Under the pieces are notes generated by a model. That model was not told the origin of the DNA. It did not search any database and saw only the letters and a program-made list of their open reading frames with translations. A stretch of 64,000 nucleotides of DNA, taken from Oscillospiraceae bacterium. Lineage in GTDB: Bacteria > Bacillota > Clostridia > Oscillospirales > UBA929. Below are positions 16,655-23,595 of the stretch, one piece after another. Every line of letters begins with the position of its first letter. The first letter of the stretch is position 1. Position numbers and translations under genes: made by a program. The stretch covers positions 21,212-85,211 of the forward strand of contig WRAI01000004.1 of NCBI GenBank assembly GCA_009780275.1, in the 5' to 3' direction.

Positions 16655-17173
16655 TCAACTAAAAAATCTCACAAAAAACGCCGCCGCCGTCATGCCGACT
16701 AAATCGCTTAACAGCGCTACCGGCAAGGCGAATTTCGCCTTTGAAACGCCTGCGCCGCCGAGGTAGACGGTCATGGTATAAAATGTCGTTTCCGTTGAGC
16801 CGAGCATGACGGCGGCGGTGCGTCCGGCGAGGCTGTCAACACCGTGCGTTTGCATAATGTCGGCTCCCAACGCTAACGCGCCGCTACCCGAAAATGGGCG
16901 CAATAGCACAAGTGGTGCCGTTTCCGGCGGAATGCCCAGAAACGAAAACACAGGCGTGACGGCAACAGTCAGCCAATCGAGCAGCCCACTGGCGCGCATC
17001 ATGCCGATGGCGGTGAGTAGCGCGATGAGTGCGGGGATGATGTTGAGCAAAATTTTTAACCCGTCGCCCGCGCCGCTAACGAGATTGCCATAAACGTCAA
17101 CACGCCGTGACAGCCCGTGCGCGGCAACGAGCAGCAGGATAAGTGGTACGGTCATTGAGCCGATAAGTGTCAT
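16655..17173 (-). CDS. spmB: spore maturation protein B (nucleoside-recognition/Gate domain)
   Basis: 172 aa polytopic protein with a SpmB-like sequence (..LLRPFSGSGALAL..). Confidence 0.8.
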   Translation of the reverse strand: MTLIGSMTVPLILLLVAAHGLSRRVDVYGNLVSGAGDGLKILLNIIPALIALLTAIGMMRASGLLDWLTVAVTPVFSFLGIPPETAPLVLLRPFSGSGALALGADIMQTHGVDSLAGRTAAVMLGSTETTFYTMTVYLGGAGVSKAKFALPVALLSDLVGMTAAAFFVRFFS

Positions 17174-17309: not shown

Positions 17310-17981
17310 CTATTGCTTTTCTTGATGCGCTTTCAGGTTTTGTTGTGCGCCGACGAGGTACAGCACCGGGTATATAAATGCAAACATGCCGCCAAATCCT
17401 ATGGCGAGACCGAACCAGCCGCCCCATGCCAGCGCGACCAGTACAGCGGAAATCGCGATCTGCACCATTGAAATGATAGCCAGCGTGCGCAAGAATTTGG
17501 CTTTTTCCAGTTTTTCGCGGTTGGTGATGCCCATAATGCCTATAAACAAGTCGAATCCGCCGACAAGCGCTGCAAAACCAAAGTAAATCGTCCACATTGT
17601 GGTCGTCGCCGTTGGAATAAACGAATCCCAAAATCCGCCGTTTATACCAAGGTCGTAGTAAAGGCCGGAAAGATCATTGAAAAGCTCGGTAAAGATAGCG
17701 GTAATGTCGCCGCCGCCAACCAGCCCCCAAAGTGCTACCATTATGCCGGATGCGCCCGCAAGAACGTACAGGATGCCCATAACAAGCAAGAATATGCGCC
17801 CTTTAGCAGGATTCTGCGGGCGCAGAAATGGATAATATGCTGTAGCGGATTGCGTGGATTGTATTAGGGGTTCAGGTGTAACGGACGCGGTTGTTTCACA
17901 GACGGCCGCTGCGCCGCATTGTTGGCAGAATTTGTCGCCAGAAATAAAAGCTTTGCCGCAGGTTGTGCAGAATTTGGACAT
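17310..17981 (-). CDS. zinc-ribbon domain membrane protein
   Basis: N-terminal CxxC-x10-CxxC (FCTTCG..FCQQCG), then about 5 hydrophobic segments. Confidence 0.55.
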   Translation of the reverse strand: MSKFCTTCGKAFISGDKFCQQCGAAAVCETTASVTPEPLIQSTQSATAYYPFLRPQNPAKGRIFLLVMGILYVLAGASGIMVALWGLVGGGDITAIFTELFNDLSGLYYDLGINGGFWDSFIPTATTTMWTIYFGFAALVGGFDLFIGIMGITNREKLEKAKFLRTLAIISMVQIAISAVLVALAWGGWFGLAIGFGGMFAFIYPVLYLVGAQQNLKAHQEKQ

Positions 17982-18029: not shown

Positions 18030-18641
18030 TTATAATAGCACATTATGGCATTGGCTGTCAATCTTTGAAGAAAACGCCTGCAATATTTTAATCGCCGCCA
18101 GTGAAAATGCCATAGCGACAATCGACGTCAGCCACACAGGAAGTAATATATCAAATGGCGACGCCGCGCCCAGTGATGCACGCACGCCGCCAACGGTCGC
18201 GGGAATCAGCTGAATGGAGGCTGTGTTCATGACAAGCAGGGCCACTAAATCTTTGCAGGCCAAGCTGCCATCGCCATTGATTTTTTGCAACCGCTTTGCC
18301 GCACGTACGCCTGCCGGCGTCGCTGCGTTGCCCAGCCCCAGCAAATTTGCCGAAACATTGGCACTGATGGCCTCCATCGCCTCGTTGTCATGTCTTGCCG
18401 AGGGAAAAATCAGGCCCAGCACAGGCGAAAGCAATTTTGCTAATCCACCTGCAAGTCCCGATGCCCGCATGACCGCCATTACGCCCGACCACAGGCAAAG
18501 AATGCCTGCCATAGCGATGCATAGTTGCACAGCCTGCGCCGCACCGTCAAACGCGCCTGTGGCAAGGGATGCCGCATTGCCTGTGAGCAGTGCGTAGCCC
18601 AGAGAAGCCGCCACCATGATGATCCAAGACCAAGAGAGCAT
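18030..18641 (-). CDS. spmA: spore maturation protein A (nucleoside-recognition/Gate domain)
   Basis: SpmA-like polytopic protein. ATG 18641 preceded by GGAGG at 7 nt; the track ORF starts at 18677. Confidence 0.8.
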   Translation of the reverse strand: MLSWSWIIMVAASLGYALLTGNAASLATGAFDGAAQAVQLCIAMAGILCLWSGVMAVMRASGLAGGLAKLLSPVLGLIFPSARHDNEAMEAISANVSANLLGLGNAATPAGVRAAKRLQKINGDGSLACKDLVALLVMNTASIQLIPATVGGVRASLGAASPFDILLPVWLTSIVAMAFSLAAIKILQAFSSKIDSQCHNVLL

Positions 18642-18732
18642 AGAGAGCCTCCGAAACTTTGAAAATTCCTTGGTCAAGCGTATGCGTCATATGGGGGGGG
18701 TATGCGTTGTAGAAGTGGCAGCCGACACTGCT

Positions 18733-18761
18733 TTGACAAGCGCGACCGCTGTTGATATAAT
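18733..18761 (+). promoter_or_regulatory. sigma-A promoter of the receiver-kinase-alarmone synthetase operon
   Basis: TTGACA (18733-18738), 17 nt, TATAAT (18756-18761). Confidence 0.6.
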
Positions 18762-18844
18762 GAAGCAGCGAGTAGCATGCCGGATAGCACGTGTCGCGAG
18801 GTGTGACACTATTTGTTAAAAGGCAAAGGAAAGGAAATACTTGA

Positions 18845-19285
18845 ATGAGCGAGGCAAAGAAGATTTACATCGCGGACGATGAAACCAATATTCGGTTGGG
18901 CATCAAGACCTTTTTGGAGGGTGCGGGGTATGTTGTCGAGGATTTTGAAAATGGCGATTTGCTGTTGGCTGCCTTTTCTAAAAATCCTGCCGACTTAGTC
19001 ATTTTAGACATTATGATGCCGGGGTCAAACGGTTTTGTTGTTTGCAAAGCCTTGCGAAAAATCAGTTCGGTGCCGATTATTATGCTGACGGCACGGGATA
19101 GCGACTTGGATTACGCCACCGGCTTAGACTTGGGCAGTGATGATTACTTAACCAAGCCATTCAGTCCCATGGCACTCACCATGCGCATTAAGGCGATTTT
19201 TAGGCGTATGGAGTTTGCTAAGGAGATGTACGCCGAGCAGGTGGACACGATGCAAGAGGGCGGAGAAGCCAATGAGAGTGCATAA
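18845..19285 (+). CDS. single-domain response regulator (OmpR-type receiver without a DNA-binding domain)
   Basis: 146 aa. Receiver residues DDE (IADDE), phospho-Asp in VILDIMMP, T in MLTA, K in LTKPF. It ends about 25 aa after helix 5 and the kinase gene overlaps its 3' end, leaving no room for a winged helix. Confidence 0.85.
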   Translation: MSEAKKIYIADDETNIRLGIKTFLEGAGYVVEDFENGDLLLAAFSKNPADLVILDIMMPGSNGFVVCKALRKISSVPIIMLTARDSDLDYATGLDLGSDDYLTKPFSPMALTMRIKAIFRRMEFAKEMYAEQVDTMQEGGEANESA

Positions 19286-20342
19286 GGACAAAAAGAAAGC
19301 AAGGCTGCGTCAAAGAATTCTCGCGGCGTTTTCGCTGGTGCTGTTCTTTTCGCTGCTGGTGCTGGCGGTGGGATTCAATATCGCCATTCGGCTGCTTTCG
19401 GCCAGCGACAGCTATTATTACGCCGAGCAGGACACGACCGGCCGAGCGGGCATAACGCTGTTTGTGTTGGTCGGGATTATGTTTGTTGTGTCTGTGGTTG
19501 TCACTTACTTTTTATCCAACTCTATCACGCGCCCCATTGAAAGGTTGGGTAAGTTTGCGTTGGGGATAGGAAACGGCAATTTTGATACAAATGACTTCAC
19601 CTTTCGAGACATTGAGCTGGAAAACTTAAACGCTGCTTTGAATAAATCGGTGCGACAGTTGGGGGTATATGACAGTGCGCAAAAAGACTTTTTCCAAAAC
19701 GCCTCACATGAGTTGCGCACGCCGTTAATGTCCATCAAAGTTTACGCCGAAGGCATTATTTACGACCTGATGGACGCAAAGCAGGCGGGTGAGACCATTT
19801 TGGAGGAAACTGATAGATTGTCCGAGTTGGTTGCAAACTTGCTGTACATCGCTAAAATTGACAATGTTGATAGCATCGCAACGCTCTACGCTGCCGAGAA
19901 GGTTGACTTGAAAGAGGTCATTAAAACGTGCACTGCGCGGCAACAGGCTGTTGCCGATAAAAAGCAAATTGTTTTTAGCTTTGATTCTGATGATGACGCC
20001 ATTTTTTATATATGTTCCGCCGAGTTGATGGCGCGGGCTGTCGATAATCTTATCTCCAATGCAATCCGCTATGCCATGTCCACGATTACGCTTTCTTGCC
20101 GAAAGGAAGATAACAATATCGTTATCCGCATTGCAGATGATGGTAATGGCATAGAATCTGAAGTCCTGCCCCATGTTTTCGAGCGTTTTTATAAGGGTAT
20201 GGGCGGAAACACAGGCATTGGGTTGTCTATTGTCAAGTCAATCGCTGACCGCCACGACGGTTGGGTGACAGCGGAAAATGTAAATAATGGCGGTGCGGCT
20301 TTTACCATAACGTTGCCTGATGATACGACACAGAGGAGATAA
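19272..20342 (+). CDS. sensor histidine kinase (2 TM, HAMP, HisKA, HATPase_c)
   Basis: H-box FFQNASHELRTPL, N-box LISNAIRYA, G-boxes DDGNGI and GIGLSIV. ATG 19272 overlaps the receiver gene by 14 nt. Confidence 0.9.
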   Translation: MRVHKDKKKARLRQRILAAFSLVLFFSLLVLAVGFNIAIRLLSASDSYYYAEQDTTGRAGITLFVLVGIMFVVSVVVTYFLSNSITRPIERLGKFALGIGNGNFDTNDFTFRDIELENLNAALNKSVRQLGVYDSAQKDFFQNASHELRTPLMSIKVYAEGIIYDLMDAKQAGETILEETDRLSELVANLLYIAKIDNVDSIATLYAAEKVDLKEVIKTCTARQQAVADKKQIVFSFDSDDDAIFYICSAELMARAVDNLISNAIRYAMSTITLSCRKEDNNIVIRIADDGNGIESEVLPHVFERFYKGMGGNTGIGLSIVKSIADRHDGWVTAENVNNGGAAFTITLPDDTTQRR

Positions 20343-20345
20343 AAA

Positions 20346-20978
20346 GTGATTGTAAAATTTTGTGATGAGGAATTTGTGCGTCTGAAAAAGCTGCTGCTCT
20401 CTTACGAGTGGGCGCAACGGACCATGCTGACTAAGTTGAGTGTTATCCACGAATCGTTCAAATACGGTGATAACATTAATCCTATCGGATATATTGCAGG
20501 ACGCATCAAGTCGCCGGAAAGCATTGCGGGGAAATTGCATAAACAGAAACTTGCACTGACCGCCGATAATGCCAAAAAGCATATGAATGACATTGCCGGT
20601 ATTCGCATTATCTGTTCGTATGCCAAAGATATTTATTTTTTGGTCGATTTGATACGGGAAATGCCCGACGGAAACATTATCAGCGAAAAGGATTATGTGA
20701 CCAACCCAAAGCCCAGCGGGTATCGCAGTTATCATATTATTTTGGAAATTACAATATATCATTCGGGCACGACAGAGACTTTGCCGATTGAAATACAAAT
20801 CCGTACAGAAGCGATGAATTTTTGGGCAACACTGGAACATCAAGCCAAATACAAGTACAAAGAAGAAATTCCAAAGCATTTGAGCGACGAACTGATACTC
20901 TGCGCTGATAAAATTGCCGAGCTGGATAATCGAATGTTTTTGATTCATGAAATTATTTCGTTGATAAATAATGAGTAA
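20346..20978 (+). CDS. small alarmone synthetase (RelQ/RelP-type GTP pyrophosphokinase)
   Basis: 210 aa single RelA_SpoT synthetase domain: DIAGIRIICSY, KPSGYRSYHIIL, EIQIRTEAMNFWATLEH. GTV start GTG 20346 lies 3 nt after the kinase stop, with AGGAGA in the kinase 3' end. Confidence 0.9.
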   Translation: MIVKFCDEEFVRLKKLLLSYEWAQRTMLTKLSVIHESFKYGDNINPIGYIAGRIKSPESIAGKLHKQKLALTADNAKKHMNDIAGIRIICSYAKDIYFLVDLIREMPDGNIISEKDYVTNPKPSGYRSYHIILEITIYHSGTTETLPIEIQIRTEAMNFWATLEHQAKYKYKEEIPKHLSDELILCADKIAELDNRMFLIHEIISLINNE

Positions 20979-20986
20979 AGGCACAG

Positions 20987-21011
20987 CGGGCGGGCATGAA
21001 AGCCCGCCCCT
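20987..21011. terminator. GC-rich hairpin between convergent genes (no clear U-tract)
   Basis: GCGGGCGGGC-atgaaa-GCCCGCCCC. Confidence 0.55.
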
Positions 21012-21017
21012 ACAATG

Positions 21018-22055
21018 TTAGGCTGCCGACGCGTGATCTATGCAACACTTAGATTCGCCGGATTTTAGCATGTTGCTGATAAAGATGCCGTAGCCTTTTT
21101 GTGCGTCGTTGACGAACACGTGAGTAATCGCGCCGATGAGTTTACCGTTTTGTACAATCGGGCTGCCGCTCATGCCTTGTACGATACCGCCAGTTTTGGC
21201 AATCAGCTCAGGGTCGGTCACTTTGACAATCATATTGCGTGAATCGCGGTTGCCTAGCAGGCGTATGATTTCGATGTCGTATTGCCGCACTTGATCATCG
21301 GAAACTTGGCAGTATATTGTCGCCATGCCCGTGCTGATTTCGCTATCTTGCGCGATGGGCAGCGGTTTGTTTTTTGATGGTATAGCCGATGGTTTTGTCG
21401 TGCCGAAAATGCCGTTTTCGGTGTTGCTGTATAAATCGCCCATGTGGTCGTTGAGGTCAAAGCTACCGCGCAGTTCGCCCGGGTCGCCGGGCAGTCCGCG
21501 TTTGACATCAATGATGTCGGCGGGCGAAACCGTGCCGCTTTCGAGTGGGAGAAGCTGGCTCGTTTCGGGGTCATGAATGCCATGGCCCAGCGCGCCAAAC
21601 CGATTGCTTATGGGGTCAAAGTACGTTACCGTGCCAATGCCTGCTATGCGGTCGCGGATATACACGCCCAGCCTGTATTGTGTGTCGTTTTGCACTTTTG
21701 CAGGCGTTATCTTAATTGTAAGCGTCTTGCCGTCCCGAGTGACGCCTAATTTGATCGCACTGCCGTCGGCTTGTTGCACGGCGGCATGGAAGTCTTGTGT
21801 GCTTTCGACTTCGGTATCATTAACATGAGTAATCGTATCATTGACCTTTAAGCCGGCGTCTTGCGCGGGTGTACGTTCGCCGGCGTTGGTGGTAACGGCT
21901 GTCAAGCCGATGACCATCACGCCGTTGATGTGTGCCTGGATGCCGATGGCATTGCCCATGGGAATCAGCTCAGCCGGCAATGGCTGCGCCATGCCGATGC
22001 TGACGGTCACAACCATTGAAATTGCTAAGAGAAAAGAGATAGTTTTTTTTCGCAT
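21018..22055 (-). CDS. spoIVB: stage IV sporulation protein B (S55 signalling peptidase)
   Basis: PDZ-like region, then the S55 core ..FGALGHGI.. and ..GMSGSPIVQNGKLIGAITHVF.. ATG 22055 is preceded by GAGGTG and followed by a signal anchor; the track ORF extends to 22292. Confidence 0.9.
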   Translation of the reverse strand: MRKKTISFLLAISMVVTVSIGMAQPLPAELIPMGNAIGIQAHINGVMVIGLTAVTTNAGERTPAQDAGLKVNDTITHVNDTEVESTQDFHAAVQQADGSAIKLGVTRDGKTLTIKITPAKVQNDTQYRLGVYIRDRIAGIGTVTYFDPISNRFGALGHGIHDPETSQLLPLESGTVSPADIIDVKRGLPGDPGELRGSFDLNDHMGDLYSNTENGIFGTTKPSAIPSKNKPLPIAQDSEISTGMATIYCQVSDDQVRQYDIEIIRLLGNRDSRNMIVKVTDPELIAKTGGIVQGMSGSPIVQNGKLIGAITHVFVNDAQKGYGIFISNMLKSGESKCCIDHASAA

Positions 22056-22217
22056 TTTTGAGTCACCTCGCCTTTCGACGCCGTTACTTTGACCAAAAAA
22101 GGTGTCGCTTACTCTACCGAAAACGTGGCAAAAGCGAGGGAAAATGGCTTGGAAGCATTGTCCAATTACGTTACGAGCGGTATTGACGCGTCTGGCACAG
22201 AAAAAATTCGGTTGCGC

Positions 22218-22246
22218 TTGAAAAATATGGCAATGTGTTGTATAAT
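22218..22246 (+). promoter_or_regulatory. sigma-A promoter of the M16 peptidase pair
   Basis: TTGAAA (22218-22223), 17 nt, TATAAT (22241-22246). Confidence 0.65.
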
Positions 22247-22341
22247 GATTTGGCGAATGAACATGATATTGTAAGGAACACAGAGAAAGCATCCGCGAAG
22301 CGGATTCGGCAATTTTTTAACTTATATATTGGAGAAACTTT

Positions 22342-23595
22342 ATGACACGCATAGCCATTATGCCCGGTGTATATCTCACCGCCGTGCAAACCGAAAAATT
22401 CAAGAGCAGTTGTTTATCGGTGAATTTATTGCGCAATCTAAATGCACAAACGGCATCGCAGAACGCAATGCTGCCATCTATTTTGCGCCGCGGCACGCAA
22501 GACTATCCCAACATGGAGCAATACGCTGCACGACAAGATGAGCTGTATGGCGCCAAGATTACGCCGATGGTACGCAAAAAAGGCGAAGTACAGTGTATCG
22601 GCTTACAGGCCGATTTTGTTGACGGCACGTACACGCCCGATGGTGAGGCGCAATTACAAAATGTGTTGAGCTTACTGTGTGATACGCTGTTATTGCCCGT
22701 GCAGGACGGCAAAAAATTTCAAACCGATTATTTCGATAGCGAACAAAGCAATTTGGTTGACAAGATTGATGCGTTGATCAACAACAAAATCGGATATGCT
22801 CGTCACGCTGCAACCGCGTTGATGTGCAGTCATGAAGCGTACGGTATCCATAGCTTGGGGCAGCGTGATGTTGCATCCAATATAACAAATGAGCAATTAT
22901 ATCAAGCGTGGCAGGATGTACTGGCAACGTCGCAAATTGAAATTTTTTACTGCGGGACCGTGCCACGGGCGAGGATTGAGGGATTGCTGCGAAGAAAATT
23001 AGAAGCTTTGCCGCGCAGTGTACTTGAAATCACCAGTACGCAAATTGTGCCGGCGGCGCAGAAAACGCGGACGCATGAAGAGCGCATGGATGTGGGACAG
23101 GGTAATCTTGTACTGGGGTTTCGTACGCCGTTGGATGATTTTCCCGCTGCATTTATGGCAAACATGGTCTATGGTGGCAGCTTGACAGGAAAACTGTTTG
23201 TCAATGTGCGCGAAAGGTTGTCGCTGTGTTACTTTGCGCAGTCGGTGATTGATAAATGGAAGGGTATTATGTTTGTGCAGGCAGGTATTGACTTTGGGCA
23301 GTACGACAAGGCACTCAAAGAGATTTTGGAACAATGGAAAAAGTGCTGTGATGGCGATATTACACAAGATGAAATGACAGCGGCGTTTAATACCGTTGAA
23401 ACGTTGTACACGGCAGTTGAGGACAGCCCGTTTGAGCTTGAAGAATTTGCGCTGGGACAGGCTGTGGGTGGATTTAAGTACAGTGCGGGAGAATTTATTG
23501 AACTGTGCCGCGCTGTGACGGTTGAGCAGGTGGCGCAAGCGGCGCAAGGTATGTCGTTGGATACGGTTTATTTTTTGCGAGGTGATGGGTCATGA
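22342..23595 (+). CDS. M16 family peptidase-like protein (non-catalytic partner, no HxxEH)
   Basis: 417 aa pitrilysin-fold-like protein lacking the zinc motif; overlaps the start of the catalytic subunit gene (ATGA). Confidence 0.8.
   Translation: MTRIAIMPGVYLTAVQTEKFKSSCLSVNLLRNLNAQTASQNAMLPSILRRGTQDYPNMEQYAARQDELYGAKITPMVRKKGEVQCIGLQADFVDGTYTPDGEAQLQNVLSLLCDTLLLPVQDGKKFQTDYFDSEQSNLVDKIDALINNKIGYARHAATALMCSHEAYGIHSLGQRDVASNITNEQLYQAWQDVLATSQIEIFYCGTVPRARIEGLLRRKLEALPRSVLEITSTQIVPAAQKTRTHEERMDVGQGNLVLGFRTPLDDFPAAFMANMVYGGSLTGKLFVNVRERLSLCYFAQSVIDKWKGIMFVQAGIDFGQYDKALKEILEQWKKCCDGDITQDEMTAAFNTVETLYTAVEDSPFELEEFALGQAVGGFKYSAGEFIELCRAVTVEQVAQAAQGMSLDTVYFLRGDGS

Follow-up and report, generated by a model that had tools for sequence, protein, structure and literature searches.

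Gene content and organization of the locus

The locus considered here lies in a stretch of 64,000 nucleotides (nt) of contig WRAI01000004.1 (positions 21,212 to 85,211, assembly GCA_009780275.1) from an Oscillospiraceae bacterium. This whole stretch is called the window, and coordinates without another locus name refer to it. At positions 18733-21010 it carries a block made up of a promoter, a leader of about 80 nt, three co-oriented genes and a GC-rich hairpin. The genes code for a stand-alone receiver domain (REC), a sensor histidine kinase (HK) and a small alarmone synthetase (SAS), and the question raised by this association, hereafter the triad, is whether the receiver may control the synthetase by protein contact rather than through transcription. 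The features of the block are the following:

18733..18761, + strand: SigA/sigma-70-type promoter (TTGACA at 18733-18738, 17-nt spacer, TATAAT at 18756-18761)
18762..18844, + strand: 5' leader of about 80 nt (small hairpin at 18791-18809, then TATTTGTT, and a purine-rich ribosome-binding region)
18845..19285, + strand: stand-alone receiver assigned to the OmpR/PhoB lineage, 146 amino acids (aa), Pfam Response_reg only
19272..20342, + strand: membrane sensor histidine kinase, 356 aa, with its ATG 14 nt inside the receiver gene
20346..20978, + strand: RelP-like small alarmone synthetase, 210 aa, with a GTG start
20988..21009, + strand: GC-rich hairpin with an 8-bp all-GC stem, between the convergent SAS and spoIVB genes

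The coordinates and spacing of the three tightly packed genes are those of the original prediction, which had been made from the letters of the window alone. With a 14-nt overlap between the first two genes and a 3-nt gap between the last two, the SAS shows the co-oriented, close linkage to an HK and a regulator that marks relPRS-type operons. The GTG of the synthetase follows the kinase stop codon by 3 nt and is preceded, 8 nt upstream, by AGGAGA, a Shine-Dalgarno sequence inside the kinase gene, as had also been proposed.

The receiver as a conserved single-domain protein

The first gene had been described as coding for an OmpR-type receiver of 146 aa with all phosphoacceptor residues and no winged helix, and this description holds on comparison with Pfam. 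Response_reg (PF00072, 94 bits) is the sole Pfam domain of the protein, and no match to Trans_reg_C (PF00486) was obtained at E <= 0.01; the same profile matched both positive controls, namely the regulators of locus L029 and P0131. The acidic pocket (D11, D12), the acceptor D55 and the residues T82, Y101 and K104 are all present. The protein ends 25 aa past alpha5, these last ~25 aa forming an acidic, variable tail, and its end is overlapped by the kinase gene. Its best NCBIfam matches are RpaB, CreB, VanR and OmpR, regulators of about 230 aa of which only the N-terminal ~125 residues align (positions 1 to ~125), and the scores of at most 134 bits are far below the equivalog cut-offs of 250-500. 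In the PDB, the best matches are WalR/MicA, RegX3, PhoP and BaeR. The protein thus has the N-terminal receiver features of the OmpR/PhoB family and lacks its C-terminal winged helix. With the receiver as the only recognizable domain, here and in the orthologs, it belongs to the single-domain response regulators.

The original prediction had left room for the case in which orthologous operons all carry a full-length OmpR-type regulator, this copy being truncated. The opposite is found: the 120 best homologs in a collection of 5.8 billion proteins are 75-89% identical, measure 126-167 aa and contain PF00072 only, and the receiver of every triad examined is likewise without a winged helix. In over 120 separate 90%-clusters, the receiver is intact and none of its acceptor residues is missing, and full-length OmpR-type proteins appear only from ~55-60% identity down (in a library clustered at 50% identity). 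Across 13 triads, mean pairwise identity is 79% for the receiver, 66% for the SAS and 62% for the cytoplasmic part of the HK, and the nonsynonymous divergence (dN) is 0.156 for the receiver, 0.253 for the SAS and 0.309 for the HK, with synonymous sites saturated. The receiver is the slowest-evolving of the three partners. A local truncation or pseudogene was considered and rejected on this conservation (the 120 homologs and dN); the output domain would rather have been lost at the base of a large clade than in this genome.

The alpha4-beta5-alpha5 face is the usual output or dimerization face of receivers. In the receiver clade, this region (LTARDSDLDYATGLDLGSDDYL-KPFSPMAL-MR-KAIFRR) is near-invariant.

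Kinase and synthetase

The second gene product has a HisKA (56.5 bits) and a HATPase_c domain (86.1 bits, Pfam). It possesses the conserved histidine of class I (HisKA) kinases, here H146 within SHELRTPL, as well as their N, G1, F and G2 boxes; NLISNAIRY, DDGNGI, FERFYKG and GIGLSIV are present. Its layout consists of a first hydrophobic, transmembrane segment (TM1), an extracytoplasmic loop of ~18 aa, a second such segment (TM2), a HAMP-like linker, HisKA and HATPase_c. A HAMP/HisKA kinase overlapping the receiver gene by 14 nt had been announced. HisKA and the overlap are borne out; HAMP (PF00672) stays below threshold at 19.5 bits for a cut-off of 25 (E = 0.0013), even though it is matched at the expected place from position 1 to 51 of a 53-position profile, and it reaches 17 bits in the ortholog of locus L006. 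In the kinase orthologs, the cytoplasmic part is kept (59-73% identity) and the sensor part varies: some have a short loop, others (L006, L019 and L110) an extracytoplasmic domain measuring ~110-130 aa. Judging from its HELRT phosphatase motif, the kinase is probably bifunctional.

The third gene product is matched by RelA_SpoT (PF04607) with 113 bits over residues 52-173. It scores 153.6 bits against YwaC/RelP from B. subtilis, 148.8 against RelP from S. aureus and 117 against YjbM/RelQ; its score against the NCBIfam YjbM equivalog model is 183 bits, below the cut-off of 320. It aligns over its full length with the RelP structures 6fgk and 6ewz, and the motifs DIAGIRII (DxxGxR), SGYRSYH (GYRSxH) and EIQIRT...LEH align with those of RelP. 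From these comparisons, the protein is classed as a SAS with a single synthetase domain; of the designation RelQ/RelP-type given in the original prediction, the synthetase assignment stands and the affiliation narrows to RelP-like rather than RelQ-like.

Conservation of the triad

A survey of the co-occurrence of a receiver-only protein, a kinase and a SAS had been proposed, and the triad is found in at least 13 loci (the window, also numbered L001, L003, L006, L009-L013, L018, L019, L021, L022 and L110). Their receivers measure 130-159 aa, and at none of these loci does the receiver, or a gene nearby, carry a winged helix or other DNA-binding domain. In 13/13 triads, the REC and HK genes either overlap or have no more than 5 nt between them, and the gap between HK and SAS never exceeds 62 nt. 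When loci were looked up from the receiver, all four were triads (the window protein, P0062, P0084 and P0126, the most divergent at 62% identity). The genome scan based on the SAS gave 16 loci, consisting of nine complete triads, one HK+SAS pair cut by the contig end, locus L016 (see below) and five solitary SAS genes, four at >=59% identity and one at 45%. In addition, the longest contigs of at least 19 further pairs of receiver and SAS clusters are of equal size, which is an indirect sign of co-location.

The four closer solitary SAS (L014, L015, L017 and L023) are 63-67% identical to the SAS of the window and share its conserved N- and C-terminal helices; no sequence feature separating triad-linked from solitary SAS was seen by eye.

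Clustering of all open reading frames (ORFs) from these loci revealed no conserved fourth gene, whether hydrolase, transporter or antitoxin. The neighbourhoods are unrelated, with ligA, spmAB and spoIVB in the window and an HMA P-type ATPase elsewhere, and HMA-ATPase, MetNQ-like and uracil phosphoribosyltransferase (UPRTase) neighbours each occur in few loci only. Because the neighbourhoods differ and no other gene is common to the triads, the triad moves as a unit. The lower GC content of the block in the window (0.41-0.49 inside versus 0.50-0.56 in the flanks), where the original prediction had rightly seen an AT-richer block, fits such movement.

All named sources are termite-gut metagenomes or metagenome-assembled genomes (MAGs), and to date the triad is known only from uncultured Clostridia of termite guts. 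Triads at L019, L020 and L006 (P0084) lie on contigs binned as 'Treponema sp.' in termite-gut MAGs, the others being labelled Oscillospiraceae, Defluviitaleaceae or Clostridiales; the Treponema-binned triads represent either cross-phylum horizontal transfer or mis-binning.

In two neighbourhoods that are otherwise dissimilar, a P-type ATPase with an HMA domain, of the heavy-metal transporter type, is encoded directly upstream of the triad and on the same strand, with 52-75 nt separating it from the start of the receiver gene (L003:2534-4948 and L006:2661-4925; also L004, L007 and L008). This placement may point to a metal or envelope signal, or to transcription reading through into the triad.

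Fusions of receiver and synthetase

Response_reg and RelA_SpoT are found in one chain in three clusters (P0147, P0271 and P0272; 334-337 aa), mutually ~60% identical. In P0147 (337 aa), recovered by an exhaustive search of representatives, a receiver 63% identical to that of the window, with intact acceptor residues, is followed by a linker of ~12 residues and then by an entire synthetase. Seven contigs, from assemblies made independently, encode P0147; no kinase gene adjoins it, and it is a real orphan response regulator. An artificial REC+SAS query brought no fusions beyond the same three clusters, and a Foldseek search against the PDB gave no chain spanning both REC and SAS domains. In neighbour-joining (NJ) trees, the fusion REC is sister to the REC-only clade and the fusion SAS is sister to the clade of triad (and solitary) SAS. 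An AlphaFold2 model of the fusion has a pLDDT (predicted local distance difference test) of 93.8 and a pTM (predicted template modelling score) of 0.72.

Homologs of both partners are here joined in one chain, which by the Rosetta-stone argument speaks for a direct link in function, as a rule a physical one. The proposal that the receiver acts on the synthetase, which the original prediction had based on the missing DNA-binding domain, gains independent support from these fusions, in which both domains are the closest outgroups of those of the triad.

The fusions also bear on an arrangement centred on the kinase, in which the receiver would regulate its own kinase by feedback, in the manner of DivK with DivL/PleC, and the SAS would be either constitutive or gated by the kinase. 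The HK and SAS genes are adjacent and tightly spaced in all triads, and a conserved cytoplasmic kinase core below a variable sensor would suit this arrangement. It is nevertheless improbable, given that the domain fused to the SAS is REC and not HK, that these fusions occur without an adjacent kinase, and that no HK-SAS fusion was seen among the best matches of SAS-containing queries.

Upstream of the fusion P0272, at a distance of 12 nt, a gene of 122 aa (L028:1201-1569) has a weak match to PilZ, a c-di-GMP-binding domain.

Origin of the receiver lineage

Proteins combining a receiver with a GGDEF domain nest within the REC-only clade in the NJ tree, namely P0121, which has 80% REC identity and an intact GGDEF, and the receiver of L016. 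The latter (L016:3164-3919, 251 aa) occupies the receiver slot of the triad and consists of a receiver and a partial, degenerate GGDEF (GRNEF; of the Pfam GGDEF profile, only positions 53-152 are matched), and it may represent a transitional stage from one to the other of the REC-GGDEF and receiver-only forms. The tail of the receiver-only proteins (EF-x-K/R-xx-YAE) resembles the linker before GGDEF (YAERDMLTGL) in P0121, L016 and P0144. As regards DNA-binding forms, the nearest outgroup pair is found in L029, where a full-length OmpR-type regulator adjoins a homologous kinase; it was the sole useful match of a metagenome scan with the receiver alignment (generic patterns of the type DDY[LI][TVI]KPF), the matches listed being mostly ordinary OmpR-family proteins at 38-62% identity. 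P0131 (159 aa) has a receiver 67% identical to that of the window together with the C-terminal half of a winged helix (Trans_reg_C 25-77) and is an internally deleted OmpR-type regulator.

Seen across these proteins, the receiver lineage has been recombined with winged-helix, GGDEF and SAS outputs, or with none. Because REC-GGDEF proteins nest in the REC-only clade, the lineage would repeatedly drive synthetases of nucleotide messengers. The output-less form may descend from a REC-GGDEF protein and not have arisen by losing a winged helix, an origin which is suggestive only, since the trees are without support values.

The same proteins lend themselves to a reading in terms of decay, the receiver being a non-signalling remnant of an OmpR-type or REC-GGDEF regulator within a relPRS-like operon that is itself decaying. 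P0131 with only half a winged helix, the degenerate GGDEF of L016 and the resemblance of the receiver tail to the pre-GGDEF linker of P0121, L016 and P0144 can all be cited in its favour. A remnant would hardly persist as intact receivers at 75-89% identity in more than 120 90%-clusters, with a dN half that of its partners at saturated synonymous divergence (dS), next to a kinase that keeps all its catalytic boxes. The domain loss is placed at the base of the clade and not in this genome, and decay, largely refuted by conservation, is very improbable.

Proposed mechanism

In the mechanism proposed, the membrane kinase would autophosphorylate on H146 and pass the phosphate to D55 of the receiver, thereby setting the phosphorylation level of the receiver in answer to a sensor part that differs between orthologs. 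The receiver would bind the RelP-type SAS of the same operon in a phosphorylation-dependent manner and change its activity. The sign could be either way: the receiver would activate the SAS, or would inhibit it until phosphorylation lifts the inhibition. Synthesis of (p)ppGpp or pGpp, the predicted products of the SAS, would then take the place of transcription as the output of the two-component system, with receiver and enzyme usually separate and occasionally fused. That the kinase phosphorylates the receiver and that the receiver gates the SAS by protein contact is, on the comparative evidence, slightly favoured. The stricter formulation, according to which His-Asp phosphotransfer directly gates alarmone synthesis through a phosphorylated receiver (or fused receiver domain) that binds and switches a RelP-type SAS, is given an even chance.

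Several points weigh against this mechanism. Of 15 close SAS relatives (>=59% identity), four are solitary, with no two-component system within 5 kb (L014, L015, L017 and L023), and in the tree these solitary SAS are interspersed with triad SAS; a SAS of this type can therefore exist without a linked receiver. On the enzyme side, RelP from S. aureus has been reported not to be allosterically regulated (PMC6606846). Given L016, the receiver-only form may be the decay product of a REC-GGDEF protein whose output was c-di-GMP. The fusions are rare (three clusters among 5.8 billion proteins) and lie outside the triad clade, and the model of the fusion gives no confident inter-domain packing because its pTM is only intermediate. 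All trees are quick NJ reconstructions, and the contact, the phosphotransfer and the enzymatic effect are proposed from comparative genomics.

Some of these observations suit another explanation, in which the genes are merely co-expressed. The receiver would then act on some other protein, serve as a Spo0F-like phosphorelay step or be a phosphate sink, the SAS simply being made along with it; in the sink form, the real partner of the kinase would be a DNA-binding regulator encoded elsewhere. Single-domain receivers are often sinks, shuttles or binders of diverse targets, as illustrated by MrrA. Solitary SAS genes within the same clade, the other output-type domain in the receiver slot of L016, and the full OmpR-type regulator with a homologous kinase in L029, the nearest outgroup pair, all agree with this explanation. 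However, a sink or shuttle leaves unexplained why this REC lineage is fused to this SAS lineage, and why the SAS stays attached to the other two genes through many relocations with no other conserved neighbour. Likewise, the alpha4-beta5-alpha5 region is near-invariant, though a sink has no need of that face, and no locus contains a gene for an Hpt, a Spo0B-like protein or a second regulator. Co-expression alone, its sink form included, is regarded as unlikely, while keeping some weight.

Promoter, leader and flanking genes

The promoter described in the original prediction matches the consensus at 12/12 positions and has an extended -10 (TG at -15/-14). It is the only zero-mismatch occurrence of TTGACA-17-TGnTATAAT in the window (n=1), where six matches with at most one mismatch are observed for 0.27 expected from shuffles. 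A perfect promoter of the constitutive type fits gating at the protein level; it is not conserved at the other loci, where comparable promoters are found upstream of some triads only (L010 and L012).

The leader has a minimum free energy of -21 kcal/mol (z = -2.3). Between the promoter and the receiver start codon, the hairpin at 18791-18809 followed by TATTTGTT has the appearance of a terminator or attenuator; terminator-like sites are no more frequent than in shuffles. A riboswitch or other known RNA was considered for the leader and rejected, no Rfam family being matched anywhere in the window, leader included.

At the other end, a hairpin closing the unit had been predicted and is present at 20988-21009 (-19.6 kcal/mol, z = -2.3). 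It was not picked up by the terminator scan and is not a canonical intrinsic terminator because it has no U-tract.

The sporulation setting noted in the original prediction is confirmed by Pfam, with genes of the Gate family (SpmA/B-like) on one side of the block and the SpoIVB peptidase S55 on the other. A link of the triad to sporulation through these genes was rejected since they are absent from every other triad; the setting is peculiar to this genome and does not belong to the module. The genes spmA and spmB are adjacent in Bacillus. In the window, a gene of 223 aa (17310-17981, - strand) with hydrophobic stretches and an N-terminal zinc-ribbon match of 17 bits (Pfam cut-off 25) sits between the Gate-family (SpmA/SpmB-like) genes at 18030-18677 and 16655-17173. 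For SpoIVB (21018-22292, - strand), the longest ORF has 424 aa versus 345 aa according to gene callers on the identical contig, and its N-terminal 79 codons are probably not translated. With the shorter start, a gap of ~290 nt (22055-22341) separates SpoIVB from the divergently oriented gene for an M16 peptidase at 22342, and a near-consensus promoter (22218-22246, + strand) lies within this gap.

Comparison with known systems

The closest described arrangement is relPRS from S. mutans, where the gene for RelP shares its operon with those of the two-component system relRS (PMC4963387). Both have a RelP-type SAS in one operon with an HK and a response regulator. The gene order differs, being RR-HK-SAS (RR, response regulator) here and relP-relR-relS there. 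RelR from S. mutans is a full-length DNA-binding regulator, whereas the regulator of the triad has no DNA-binding domain in any ortholog; the two systems are likened by their arrangement.

The nearest functional analogue is the REC-GGDEF family (PleD and WspR type), in which a phosphorylated receiver directly controls the synthetase of a nucleotide second messenger; the PleD receivers are detectable homologs of the receiver of the window (85 bits). Here, the synthetase has the RelA/SpoT fold and the messenger would be (p)ppGpp or pGpp, not c-di-GMP. Moreover, receiver and enzyme are separate in the window and fused only in P0147, P0271 and P0272. With other single-domain regulators (CheY acting on FliM, DivK, CpdR, Spo0F and MrrA), the receiver shares an intact acceptor and an output by protein-protein interaction or phosphotransfer. 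It differs from them in belonging to the OmpR/PhoB lineage and not to those of CheY or Spo0F, and an alarmone synthetase is not among their known targets.

Control of SAS is described in reviews as mainly transcriptional, with RelQ being activated by pppGpp and inhibited by single-stranded RNA and RelP lacking a known regulator (PMC6606846). In toxic SAS (toxSAS) systems, a SAS is modulated post-translationally by a protein from the same operon (PMC7229694). These cases and the mechanism proposed here have in common that SAS activity is changed after translation, but no phosphorylation-dependent protein regulator of a SAS has been described. As to toxSAS, Jimmy et al. confirmed that RelP is non-toxic (PMC7229694), and the SAS of the triad is RelP-like; furthermore, it is the kinase and not the receiver that adjoins the SAS, unlike an antitoxin. 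In the paper on SAS classification (PMC7229694), neither two-component systems nor kinases or receivers are mentioned. The literature searched (full text) contained no case of a receiver controlling a small alarmone synthetase, and nothing comparable to the signal-gated, post-translational alarmone synthesis of which the original prediction knew no description.

A last comparison concerns envelope stress. VraRS and sigma M/W are envelope-stress systems that induce relP/relQ. In Firmicutes, envelope signals induce the transcription of relP/relQ (PMC6606846), and the triad would resemble these systems in tying membrane or envelope signals to an alarmone made by a SAS; in addition, the short loop of the kinase of the window is the architecture typical of intramembrane-sensing kinases. 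In contrast to them, the triad has no DNA-binding component, and its promoter in the window is a perfect one of the constitutive type.

Significance

Two-component pathways that end in the synthetase of a second messenger are already known; new here would be (p)ppGpp as the messenger and the split between receiver and enzyme. If the mechanism is true, the triad would represent a new output class of response regulators in which REC acts on a (p)ppGpp synthetase, the counterpart of REC-GGDEF for c-di-GMP, and the enzymatic outputs of response regulators would be extended from c-di-GMP/cAMP enzymes to the messenger of the stringent response. The receiver would also be the first known protein regulator of RelP enzymes. 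The triad is small and self-contained, and the natural REC-SAS fusion provides a single-chain handle for structural work. A fast, signal-gated route to (p)ppGpp would be added to a control of SAS that is mainly transcriptional, and the variable sensor of the kinase suggests that the same output is wired to different signals.

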